From assembly GCA_964425715.1 (NCBI GenBank), contig CAYRNO010000001.1, forward strand, positions 10,645-74,644: a stretch of DNA of 64,000 bases. The letters are read 5' to 3'. Each line of letters opens with the position of its first letter. Within the stretch, counting starts at the first letter, position 1. Source of the stretch: an uncultured Candidatus Saccharibacteria bacterium (GTDB taxonomy: Bacteria; Patescibacteriota; Saccharimonadia; CAILAD01; BJGX01). The position numbers and the translations under genes are program-made. Under the pieces are notes generated by a model, which did not search any database, was not told the origin of the DNA, and worked only from the letters and a program-made list of their open reading frames with translations. Below, piece after piece: positions 59,951 to 62,731 of the stretch.

Positions 59951-62731
59951 ATGAGAATACCTATAAATTTAATAAATGAATACTTAAAGATTAAACTTAC
60001 TACTAATGAAGTAGTAGAGTGTTTAGAAAAAACCGAAATTGAAGTAGAAGAGATAATTGCTGCAAAAAGCCTGCATAAGAACATAGTCACTGCTAGGGTT
60101 ATAAAAATTGATAAGCATCCCAATGCAGATAGGCTGAAGTTAGTATTGCTTGGTTTGAAAGATGATAAAACTGTAAAAGTAGTGTGTGGTGCATCTAATG
60201 TAGAATTAAATCAAATGGTGGCGTATGCGAAGCCGGGTAGTGTACTCCCGGATGGGAGCAAAATAAGCAAAGCAGTAATAAGAGGTGTGAATTCTGCCGG
60301 AATGCTGTGTTCGCCTAGAGAGTTAGGTAAGTCAGATGATCATGAAGGGATAGCTGTTCTCGACCCTGACCTCCCCCATGGAATATCATTGTGCGACATA
60401 GAAGATACGCAAGATATCATAGACATTAAGACCCCCGCTAATCGCTTTGACATGCTTTCCTTCGTCGGTATCGCAAGAGAAATATCTGCAAATTCTAAAA
60501 ATAATTTATTACTAGAACCTAAAAGCGTAAATTTATTGTTTGATAAAAAAGAGCAAACAAAAATTGAAGATAAACAAATATGTAAAAGATTTATAAGTGC
60601 AAGAATAAAAATCAACAATAAAGTAAAGTCACCACAATGGCTTGTGGATAACTTATTGGCAGCAGGGATGAGGCCAATCAGTCCAGTAGTAGATATTACC
60701 AACTTTGTAATGCTAGAAACAGGACAGCCCTCTCACGCATATGATGCAAATAAATTGAAAAGTGACTTACAAGTAAGATTTGCTAAGAAAAATGAAAGAT
60801 TAATCACCCTAGATGGAAGCTCATTGGACTTAGATAAATCAGATCTAGTAATAGTAGACAAAAACAAACCTATTGGGTTAGCTGGAGTGATTGGTGGCAA
60901 AGATACGGAAACCGATGAAAAAACAGATGAGGTAATATTAGAAGTTGCCAACTTCGATAAAACTACAGTTCGTAAGGCTGCGCTTAGACATGGCATAAGG
61001 ACTGAGGCAAGTTCAAGATTTGAAAAAGGCCTTCCACTCCCCCTTCAAGAATATGCAATCAAAAGACTGATATATTTGTATAAGAAAATTTGCAAGGGCG
61101 AATTGGTAGGCGAAGTAAATGACCAACTTTATTCCTGGCCTTGGATTCAACACGTTGGTCTTAGAATTCGAAAAGCTGAAAAATTTTTAGGAATGACACT
61201 GGATGAAAAGCAAATACTAGTAGGACTCAAAAAAAGAGGATTCGAAGCAGAGCACTTCTCTATAGTAAAAGAAGCTAGAAAACATTTAGGTAAACCTTAT
61301 AAATGGGGAGCTAATTTTAAACAAGACGGCATTGATGCTTTTGACTGCGGATATTTTGTTGACTACGTTTACTCTCTGATCGGAGAAATGGTAGGCCATC
61401 AATGTTTGCAGCTTTTTGAGTCTGGACAGCCAGTAGAAGTGAAAGATCTAAAGCCTGGAGATACAGTCTTTAGAGATGGACCATGGGAAAAATTGACAAG
61501 AAAAGAAAGAAAAGGCCTTTCGCATGTCGCCATATATATTGGAAATGGGAAAATAATTCATGCTGCCGATACATATAGAGGAAAAGATGGAAAATGGAAA
61601 AAATATCCTAAAGATAAGCAAGTAGTAATCGAGGAATCAGTTGAAACTATTACTAAAGACCCAGACTATAGAGGAGCTAGAAGGTATGTTGATAATTTTA
61701 ATCACATCCTTGCAATAACAGCACCCTGGTGGCGCGAAGATGTTCGTATAGAACAAGATATCTATGAAGAAATTGCAAAAATAGTGGGTTACGATAATCT
61801 GCCTGCTACTCTCCCCTCACTTCCTCCAGAATCATATAATGAACATCAGATGATGATGAGAATGACCAAATTACGAAATTTACTTGTAGATAGAGGATTG
61901 TTTGAAGTAATGTCATATTCATTCGTTAGCCACAAACATCTGCAAAACGATAATCTAGATCAGGATAAACATCTCAAGGTAGTAAATCCATTGAGCACTG
62001 AACAAGAGTTTCTTCGCACAACCCTTATGAGTAGTCATGTGCAGATAGTAAAGAACAACACAAACTACTCACAAGATAGATTTGGATTCTTTGAAATATC
62101 AAGAGTATACGAGAAAATATCTTCAAAACATGAAAAATCGGAAAAATGGCTATTGGCAATAACGGTCGTTGGCGATGAGGGTTATGTGAAAATAAAATCT
62201 TTGCTAGATGCGTTAGATTCGAAGTACGTTTGGGATTTAAAATACGAACCATTACAGAATAATAGATATCAAAAAGGAATTGCTGCAAATATTCTAGTGG
62301 GTGAAGAATTAGTAGGAAATTATGGTCAACTAAGCAAAAACCAATTAAAGAAACATTATAAAAATCCAAGGCCAATTAGTTATTGCGAAATAGATATTGA
62401 TAGATTAGATATAAGTATGAAAGATTTCAAAGTCCAAAACATAGCAAATTATCAACTCATAAGTCGTGATGTTACCCTTGAGATAGATAATGATATTTGG
62501 TGGCAACAATTGCAAGATAGCATAAAGCTAAATGAAGAATTAAAAAAAATAGAATATATAGATGAGTTTATAAATGATGATCTTGAAAAAGCTAATAAAA
62601 AACGAATAAGTTTCAGGCTAATATTAGATCTAGGAGCTCAACCTACCAGTCAAGAAATAACGAATATTGTTGATAATATTACTAAAAATCTACTGAAAAA
62701 AGAATTATTTAAAAACTCGACAGTTATCTAA
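59951..62731 (+). CDS. pheT: phenylalanyl-tRNA synthetase beta subunit with an inserted NlpC/P60-like domain
   Basis: PheT N-terminal and tRNA-binding domains, B3/4, B5 ([22 protein letters not shown] ... [28 protein letters not shown]), C-terminal B6-B8; start taken at the Met at 59951 (MRIPINL). An insert of about 155 aa (61253-61721) inside B5 has NlpC/P60 hallmarks. Confidence 0.85.
   Translation: [926 protein letters not shown]

Follow-up and report, generated by a model that had tools for sequence, protein, structure and literature searches.

NlpC/P60 proteins of the P60 DL-endopeptidase type (C. difficile Acd24020, 7CFL; the diffocin hub-hydrolase CD1368, 8V3W; E. faecium SagA, 6B8C; B. 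subtilis LytE and CwlO; E. coli MepS/Spr; M. tuberculosis RipA/B) are secreted or wall-anchored enzymes equipped with signal peptides and with SH3, LysM or coiled-coil modules. A cytoplasmic precedent is YkfC of B. subtilis, a murein tripeptide gamma-D-Glu-Lys/diaminopimelate endopeptidase of murein-peptide recycling; its SH3-like domains, at the N-terminus, are selective for a free N-terminal L-Ala, and its gene lies among those for peptide recycling. Aminoacyl-tRNA synthetases rarely gain new catalytic domains, and their known nested hydrolases (CP1 of LeuRS, IleRS and ValRS, INS of ProRS, and B3/4 of the beta subunit of phenylalanyl-tRNA synthetase, PheRS) all serve in editing, on which the accuracy of the genetic code depends. 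Here we describe a pheT gene, encoding PheRS beta, in a stretch of 64,000 nucleotides (nt) from an uncultured Candidatus Saccharibacteria bacterium (contig CAYRNO010000001.1, positions 10,645 to 74,644; hereafter the window). We show that one segment of its product folds as a papain-like domain of the NlpC/P60 family (MEROPS C40), whose catalytic triad is complete and which is nested in the beta-hairpin of the B5 domain.

The insert has the fold of the P60 DL-endopeptidases (Foldseek E down to 6e-11), the same Cys-His-His geometry, and the shared motifs PY.WG, DCS, GD, GHVG.Y.G and IHA; unlike them, it has no signal, is nested in a cytoplasmic synthetase, has two longer active-site loops, and belongs to a clade coupled to tRNA enzymes. 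With YkfC it has in common the cytoplasmic location and the same triad, whereas it lacks the SH3-like domains and lies inside PheRS. Its placement follows the logic of CP1, INS and B3/4, a separate, lineage-conserved hydrolase domain in a synthetase loop; however, it is a papain-like thiol enzyme with a predicted covalent acyl-enzyme, the known editing domains are not Cys-nucleophile enzymes of that fold, and the same PheT also holds an intact B3/4. The features of the locus are as follows, with positions in the window, amino acids (aa) of the protein, and the evidence used, which includes models built with AlphaFold2 (AF2) and their predicted local distance difference test (pLDDT) scores.

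58942..59937, + strand: pheS (PheRS alpha, 331 aa); Pfam tRNA-synt_2d (4.6e-90) and Phe_tRNA-synt_N
59951..62731, + strand: pheT (PheRS beta, 926 aa plus stop); Pfam domain set, NCBIfam pheT_bact, AF2
60581..61096, + strand: B3/4 editing domain (aa 211-382); Pfam B3_4 (2.9e-59)
61133..61249, + strand: N-terminal half of B5 (aa 395-433), comprising a strand, two helices and hairpin strand 1; AF2 and the E. coli alignment up to residue 437
61250..61717, + strand: insert (aa 434-589, 156 aa) in place of the 9-residue B5 hairpin turn; alignment gap, Pfam, pLDDT
61262..61684, + strand: NlpC/P60 fold proper (aa 438-578); domain-only AF2 model, Foldseek
61346..61348, + strand: catalytic Cys466 (TGC), at the N-terminus of helix 466-475; AF2, sequence
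61463..61522, + strand: clade-specific extended loop (aa 505-524), from the GD motif to the catalytic His; loop-length comparison
61523..61525, + strand: catalytic His525 (CAT), first residue of strand 525-531; AF2, sequence
61559..61561, + strand: third triad residue His537 (CAT); AF2, sequence
61706..61792, + strand: C-terminal half of B5 (aa 586-614), comprising hairpin strand 2 and a helix; Pfam B5 positions 37-67, AF2

The host protein is, by its sequence, a bona fide bacterial PheRS beta: it scores 594.3 bits against the NCBIfam equivalog TIGR00472 pheT_bact (cut-off 402.65), pheS lies directly upstream, and the domain set is full (the Pfam domains found are tRNA_bind, B3_4, NLPC_P60, B5, tRNA_synthFbeta and FDX-ACB). 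Its open reading frame (ORF) runs uninterrupted, with no frameshift and no stop, from 59876 to 62731; the likely start is the ATG at 59951, 14 nt past the pheS stop, and the stop codon occupies 62729-62731. The 75 nt on the 5' side of that start (59876-59950) are also open in the pheT frame and overlap the end of pheS. The NCBI protein for the window's own PheT, P0001 (948 aa), starts upstream (MTCVNF...); this start is probably a start-codon miscall, as relatives begin at MKI or MRI.

The original prediction, made from the letters of the window, had placed an NlpC/P60 domain with an intact Cys-His-His triad inside B5, and profile, structure model and structural search all bear it out. Pfam NLPC_P60 (PF00877) scores 48.1 bits in the whole PheT (aa 447-542) and 51.3 bits (E=1.3e-13) in the insert alone, well above the gathering cut-off of 23, whereas the B5 model of Pfam matches only in its second half (profile positions 37-67, aa 584-614). 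In alignment with E. coli PheT (3pco_B), residues 29-433 correspond to E. coli 29-437 and residues 590-716 to E. coli 447-572; as the alignment breaks at 433/590, 156 residues occupy the site of a 9-residue turn. In this cytoplasmic synthetase subunit, the insert is thus bounded by residues 433 and 590. The predicted coordinates hold (61253-61721 corresponds to aa 435-590), with two slight corrections: the protein has 926 aa rather than about 927, and the insert is at the tip of the B5 hairpin (strands 432-435 and 586-591).

A full-length AF2 model built on 94 relatives has a mean pLDDT of 91.1, with 92-96 in the insert, and a predicted template-modelling score (pTM) of 0.63. The B5 elements flank the insert at the hairpin (E400-405, H406-413, H419-428 and E432-435 before it; E586-591 and H601-612 after it), and the NlpC/P60 domain is thereby modelled as emerging from the tip of the B5 beta-hairpin. 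Modelled alone, the domain reaches a pLDDT of 91.7 and a pTM of 0.86. A Foldseek search with the domain-only model matched 65 PDB chains at E<=1e-3; the 50 listed are without exception NlpC/P60 proteins, mostly peptidoglycan DL-endopeptidases; the best matches are 7cfl_A (E=5.9e-11, template-modelling (TM) score on target 0.83), 8v3w_H, 4xcm, MepS, SagA, LytE and CwlO, and the TM score on target reaches 0.84. A phmmer search of the PDB with the insert found about 30 solved NlpC/P60 chains at E=1e-12 to 1e-5, led by the CD1368 hub-hydrolase (1e-12) and Acd24020 (2e-11). Among both the phmmer and the Foldseek matches is 3H41, the B. cereus homologue of YkfC.

The papain-like arrangement in the model is canonical: Cys466 is the first residue of a helix and His525 that of a strand, with His537 on the strand that follows. 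Profile, fold and the Cys-His-(His/Asn/Gln/Glu) triad, the marks of NlpC/P60 (PF00877, MEROPS C40), are all present. The insert keeps the motifs PY.WG, DCS, LPR or its His variant, GD, GHVG and IHA, and the active-site motifs of Tyr450, Asp465 and Ser467 are conserved as well; the 21-residue Cys466 motif, the 23-residue His525/His537 motif and YRGARRY, which the original prediction had quoted, were all found. When set against the known editing and deacylase folds (CP1, INS/YbaK, AlaX, B3/4 and DTD), the insert matched solely profiles and structures of the NlpC/P60 superfamily and thus belongs to no known editing family, although it may act as an editing domain does; LRAT/PLAAT (PF04970) scored 20.8 bits on the insert alone, under its cut-off of 24.3. 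No export signal, SH3 or LysM, such as mark a secreted cell-wall hydrolase, was found in PheT. Given the lack of any signal or targeting module, and the position of the domain in the middle of a cytoplasmic enzyme's chain, we infer that it is not a cell-wall hydrolase in its PheRS setting.

To place the insert among PheTs, we collected the 120 best clusters of PheT relatives (41-100% identity) from NCBI, ENA, JGI and Logan; those that carry a name are Candidatus Saccharibacteria. All 120 carry the insert, at lengths of 871-952 aa save two truncated entries, as do six GTDB Saccharibacteria genomes scanned with a single-sequence query. Since synonymous sites are saturated among the nearest relatives, which are about 75% identical in protein, conservation was gauged by domain-wise protein identity: the mean pairwise identity is 0.52 for the insert, against 0.54 for tRNA_bind, 0.53 for the N-terminal half of B5, 0.60 for B3_4, 0.37 for CLM and 0.32 for FDX-ACB. 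This conservation indicates that the insert is old and under purifying selection in Saccharibacteria. A recent domain capture, as the original prediction had suggested, is contradicted by the presence of the insert down to 41% PheT identity and by its being as conserved as neighbouring PheT domains. The claim that the architecture is highly unusual holds only with respect to model organisms, as the closest Saccharibacteria PheT clusters all have it and so do other Patescibacteria.

Among the 120 Saccharibacteria PheTs, Cys466 is kept in 108 and His525 in 109, and the third triad position is Q in 37, H in 28, E in 19, M in 14 and T in 10. Eleven of the 13 clusters that lack the Cys and/or the His form one group (P0094, P0095, P0099, P0105, P0110, P0113-P0117 and P0120; 871-885 aa), in which a shortened remnant of about 105-115 aa keeps the flanking motifs HFS, LKPGD, G.RRY and NFNHI, with Cys and His gone. 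As these remnants keep their flanks without the catalytic residues, the activity is usually kept yet losable while the scaffold persists; the catalytically dead subclade is a natural inactive variant that could be used for comparison. Further variants are P0084 (Cys to Arg) and P0058. Many Saccharibacteria inserts (P0006, P0007, P0015-P0020 and P0097) carry an extra sub-insert of about 17 residues before the catalytic His, with the consensus KIEKSVTDHYY...G.H.K, aligned to aa ~508-524 of the window protein; the loop before the catalytic His is therefore a hot spot for length change.

An insert-only search of 1.84 billion cluster representatives returned 180 proteins at E<=1e-10, among which, next to PheTs of roughly 900-970 aa, is a second type of PheT of about 780-860 aa, without N-terminal tRNA_bind and with NLPC_P60 in B5, from Parcubacteria (named entries: Candidatus Parcubacteria, Terrybacteria and Parcubacteria group). 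The insert is present in 32 of the 120 Parcubacteria PheTs retrieved, and the nearest PheTs without it are from Minisyncoccales, Nealsonbacteria and Pacebacteria. In a third Patescibacteria group, around P0204, which has tRNA_bind, 14 of the 118 PheTs retrieved carry it; the nearest without it are Patescibacteria and Moranbacteria PheTs. The insertion point is the same in Saccharibacteria, Parcubacteria and the third group. The insert is thus lineage-wide in Saccharibacteria, recurs elsewhere in Patescibacteria, and is a minority feature at the same site among the other Patescibacteria PheTs retrieved. Parcubacteria inserts keep the Cys in 40/40, the His in 40/40 and a His as third residue in 35/40; in other PheTs the catalytic residues are kept in 55/56. 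Some of the database entries are named 'C40 family peptidase' or 'phenylalanine--tRNA ligase beta subunit-related protein', from which it follows that annotation pipelines detect the domain. The architecture is therefore in the databases; it is apparently undescribed, and a literature search found no paper on NlpC/P60 nested in PheRS.

The canonical editing site is intact in the same protein. Residues reported for Tyr-tRNA(Phe) editing in T. thermophilus are Thr249, Asn250, His261, Gly315 and Glu334 (PMC3275996). To these correspond Thr250, Asn251, His262, Gly312, Gly315 and Glu331 in the window PheT, so that the editing-site residues of a bacterial PheT are in place; they are invariant or nearly so in the 94 relatives, and in all three groups their conservation is the same whether or not a PheT carries the insert. 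An insert that compensates for a decayed B3/4 is thus rejected, and an editing-like deacylase that takes the place of the usual editing fold is not supported, as the B3/4 residues are fully conserved.

The insert belongs to a distinct clade of NlpC/P60 proteins. Trees were built by neighbour-joining on NlpC/P60 domains, over about 120-140 columns. In the first, all sampled PheT inserts lay on one side of a bipartition together with a few non-PheT proteins; a metagenome scan seeded with those non-PheT proteins yielded 80 loci, and in the second tree the PheT inserts, small proteins and fusions group together (Jaccard 0.87, bootstrap mean 0.80). The nearest relatives are stand-alone proteins of 133-165 aa whose catalytic domain begins at the very start; no signal peptide was found in the stand-alone relatives examined, for which reason we take the members of the clade to be cytoplasmic. 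They keep the Cys in 55/55 and the His in 55/55, and with a median net charge of +10 they are more basic than secreted homologues (+4). The spacing from Tyr450 to Cys466 is 14-15 residues in the clade and 11 in secreted enzymes, and that from Asp504 to His525 is 20-21 in PheT inserts, stand-alone relatives and tRNA-enzyme fusions as against a median of 13 in secreted NlpC/P60; both lengthened segments are loops bordering the active site. We thus show that the clade consists of small, basic, cytoplasmic NlpC/P60 proteins marked by two extended loops. Within it, the Saccharibacteria and Parcubacteria inserts do not form one group (bootstrap is low), and it is possible, from these trees, that there was either one ancient insertion with losses or repeated insertion at the same hairpin.

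One stand-alone protein, P0235 (205 aa; L009 4001-4618), aligns end to end with PheT aa 415-620, is not encoded beside pheS, and is on this alignment a free-standing B5[NlpC/P60] module. Other stand-alone proteins of about 200 aa are P0215, P0261 (L010) and that encoded at L078 1408-2022.

We show further that the clade is repeatedly coupled to tRNA enzymes: it is nested in PheRS beta, lies in an operon with a monomeric PheRS, and is fused to TYW3 and to QueH. In L032/L033, the 3' end of the stand-alone gene (3959-4411) runs into a gene (4408-5535) for a 375-aa monomeric PheRS made up of a class II core and FDX-ACB, whose best PDB match is human mitochondrial PheRS (1e-56). This PheRS shares its catalytic core and FDX-ACB with human FARS2 (3CMQ); this monomeric enzyme is a partner in other organisms, whereas the window has the classical alpha/beta enzyme. 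The same adjacency is seen in two further lineages, which makes three: in L034/L035, where the two genes again overlap (PheRS at L035 1212-2432 = L034 4396-5337), and, in divergent orientation, in L020, where PheRS lies at 1-717 on the minus strand. PheRS of the mitochondrial type has neither a beta subunit nor an editing domain, and a 2010 review treats mitochondrial PheRS as the sole known monomeric class II synthetase (PMC3275996). The monomeric PheRS genes found here lie on bacterial-looking contigs, with UppS and GyrB; mitochondrial-type monomeric PheRS genes in such a setting are a by-product of this work, and that review treats the form as confined to mitochondria.

In the TYW3 fusion (P0505, 318 aa; PF02676 at 2e-41), an NlpC/P60 domain of the clade lies at the C-terminus; the fusion is found on two independent contigs (L011 5001-5957; L012/L013 2773-3729), beside a TYW2/Trm5-type gene, and the organism is probably an archaeon. 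TYW3, a methyltransferase, and TYW2/Trm5 act in the archaeal and eukaryotic wyosine pathway at G37 of tRNA-Phe. In the QueH fusion, a clade NlpC/P60 domain lies at the N-terminus of the epoxyqueuosine reductase QueH (PF02677, 4e-58), an enzyme of the tRNA Q34 pathway, on two contigs of one sample that are 83% identical (L014 272-1240; L046 3-830). A gene for a C39-like papain-fold protein (about 170 aa, Peptidase_C39_2-like) lies directly after, and often overlaps, the stand-alone gene in L019 (4023-4523), L063 (4381-4956) and L051 (327-830), and in L032 (5532-6053) follows PheRS instead; the two proteins may form a two-hydrolase module. Beyond PheRS and the C39-like gene, the stand-alone relatives have no conserved neighbourhood: no Pfam family occurs in more than 2 of the 84 neighbouring proteins. 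In L008, the stand-alone gene for P0187 (4001-4408) overlaps the end of an MprF-like LPG_synthase_TM gene (3037-4017), a single case; the rest of that contig (YGR210-like GTPase, LAGLIDADG) looks archaeal.

The stand-alone relatives also invite comparison with free-standing trans-editing factors (YbaK/ProX, AlaX, DTD and the B3/4-like CtdA, PMC12268091), being single-domain (about 135-160 aa), basic and cytoplasmic; some share an operon with a synthetase devoid of an editing domain and resemble such factors further, although the fold is unrelated and the function is suggested only by gene context.

The nested domain is real and lineage-wide; its function we infer. Our tentative reading is that the insert may be an extra thiol hydrolase that acts, beside B3/4, on an acyl or aminoacyl group of tRNA(Phe) or on a by-product of PheRS. 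In such a mechanism, the host protein would bring the NlpC/P60 domain to tRNA(Phe); His525 would activate the thiolate of Cys466, and His537 orient it, for attack on a carbonyl; and the resulting acyl-thioester intermediate would be resolved by water. The most likely substrate would be an acyl or aminoacyl group borne by tRNA(Phe), or some other by-product of the reaction that PheRS catalyses, and the domain would then provide an extra hydrolytic quality-control or deacylating site working alongside the canonical Tyr-editing site of B3/4. That coupling recurs, to PheRS in two architectures unrelated to each other and to a pair of tRNA-modification enzymes, suggests that tRNA binding is supplied by the partner; the coupling of the same clade to monomeric PheRS, TYW3 and QueH suggests, from gene context, a stronger case for a tRNA-linked hydrolase role. 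A broader proposal is doubtful though possible: insert and stand-alone relatives together may constitute a new family of tRNA-directed thiol enzymes of NlpC/P60 fold, either acyl- or aminoacyl-tRNA(Phe) deacylases (proofreading in cis or in trans) or possibly aminoacyl-transferases, recruited at least four times (PheRS beta, monomeric PheRS, TYW3 and QueH) in ultra-small bacteria and archaea.

Several observations weigh against a tRNA-linked hydrolase. The link to tRNA, as drawn here, comes only from gene fusion and neighbourhood; the TYW3 and QueH fusions each come from one lineage; and most stand-alone relatives have no conserved tRNA-related neighbour, several of them adjoining the C39-like peptidase instead. 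All canonical motifs of gamma-D-Glu-diamino-acid endopeptidases are kept, and no motif demands a non-peptide substrate. With B3/4 intact, a second deacylase is not obviously needed. The activity is dispensable, since 13 of the 120 Saccharibacteria clusters have lost the Cys and/or the His while keeping a reduced domain, and the insert is missing from many Patescibacteria PheTs.

Alternatively, the domain would be a cytoplasmic small-peptide amidase that cleaves, for example, the gamma-D-Glu-Lys or gamma-D-Glu-meso-diaminopimelate bond in murein stem peptides obtained by recycling or scavenging, or else amino-acid conjugates of gamma-glutamyl or N-acyl type; it would ride on an essential, constitutive gene in a reduced genome, and tRNA would have no part in it. 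The closest solved relatives are all peptidoglycan DL-endopeptidases, every canonical endopeptidase motif is kept, and YkfC is a cytoplasmic precedent; stand-alone members mostly lack tRNA-related neighbours, some have Mur ligases or UppS as neighbours, and several are paired with the C39-like peptidase. However, this leaves the coupling to PheRS (in two architectures), TYW3 and QueH unexplained, the TYW3 fusion lies in a Trm5/TYW2 context, i.e. in an archaeal and eukaryotic pathway of organisms without murein, and the two extended active-site loops are absent from the secreted endopeptidases; we regard such an amidase as rather unlikely. Coupling of the clade to PheRS and tRNA enzymes would also suit an acyl- or aminoacyl-transferase, in which Cys466 would take the phenylalanyl (or other acyl) group from Phe-tRNA(Phe) as a thioester and hand it on to an acceptor with an amine or hydroxyl, such as a lipid, a precursor of the cell wall or the N-terminus of a protein, as in LRAT/PLAAT enzymes. 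The NlpC/P60 superfamily does include thioester-forming acyltransferases, the insert matches the LRAT profile weakly, and one stand-alone member directly follows an MprF-like LPG_synthase_TM gene; but the LRAT match is below threshold, the domain groups with hydrolases of the P60 type rather than with the LRAT type, no acceptor-binding feature was identified, and the MprF-like neighbour is a single case, so that a transferase is improbable.

It is no more probable that the domain is a structural or regulatory module (a surface for protein or nucleic-acid interaction, or a stabiliser of B5) whose catalytic residues are a relic. The Saccharibacteria subclade whose remnant has conserved flanks and no Cys or His fits such a role, as does Met or Thr at the third triad position in 24 of 120; yet, over a very deep divergence, 90% of Saccharibacteria retain Cys and His, as do about 100% of the Parcubacteria and of the stand-alone members, the motifs of Tyr450, Asp465 and Ser467 are also conserved, and a relic would have decayed. 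Chimeric assembly, an intein or a recent mobile insertion is refuted, and nothing beyond the unusual length of PheT speaks for any of them. The frame is continuous, as the original prediction had wished to see checked, GC content is flat (0.36-0.39 across insert and flanks), and across the four data sources NCBI, ENA, JGI and Logan the same architecture is found in more than 200 independent PheTs. An intein, which the original prediction had also dismissed, is rejected: no Hint or intein family is among the Pfam matches for PheT or the insert, the fold is NlpC/P60, and the segment begins EHFS and ends ILAI followed by T.

If the tRNA-linked hydrolase is correct, PheRS would contain a second hydrolytic site, one that works by covalent catalysis, and a fold never before tied to translation quality control would have entered it; with substrates bound to tRNA(Phe), the domain would represent a new class of translation quality-control or aminoacyl-transfer enzyme. 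This would also account for the widespread small cytoplasmic homologues of cell-wall hydrolases that are named 'C40 family peptidase'. If the domain is a peptide amidase instead, it shows that reduced genomes nest enzymes within essential genes, and cautions against reading NlpC/P60 matches in Patescibacteria as lytic or host-attack factors. What has been found is a synthetase that contains a nested hydrolase whose fold and chemistry were not known to have a link to translation. The conserved, apparently active Cys hydrolase is present in PheRS across Saccharibacteria, including the human oral TM7 epibionts, which have become genetically manipulable.

The surroundings of pheS-pheT contain further synthetase genes: four lie within 13 kb (49691-62731), namely those of ArgRS, a class Ib synthetase of Trp/Tyr type, pheS and pheT, and between them lie a UvrD-type helicase-nuclease gene and RmuC. 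The order UvrD-nuclease ... pheS-pheT recurs in the distant insert-bearing locus L007. The 5' side of pheS is occupied by a hydrophobic ORF, itself preceded by a strongly AT-rich segment (58200-58600; GC 0.22-0.23); in L007 a similar ORF of 129 aa precedes pheS, and a 141-aa ORF sits between pheS and pheT. These genes, and the RNA genes elsewhere in the window, are as follows.

49691-51442: ArgRS
51605-54436: UvrD-PD-(D/E)XK helicase-nuclease
56633-57619: class Ib Trp/Tyr-type synthetase
58551-58937: 128-aa hydrophobic ORF without a Pfam match, ending 4 nt before pheS
19943-20108: 6S RNA match, 47.8 bits, barely above the threshold of 46.4
25551-25922: RNase P class A RNA, 219 bits
40202-40592: tmRNA, 127 bits
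40549-42093, - strand: 514-aa ORF, overlapping the 3' end of the tmRNA call

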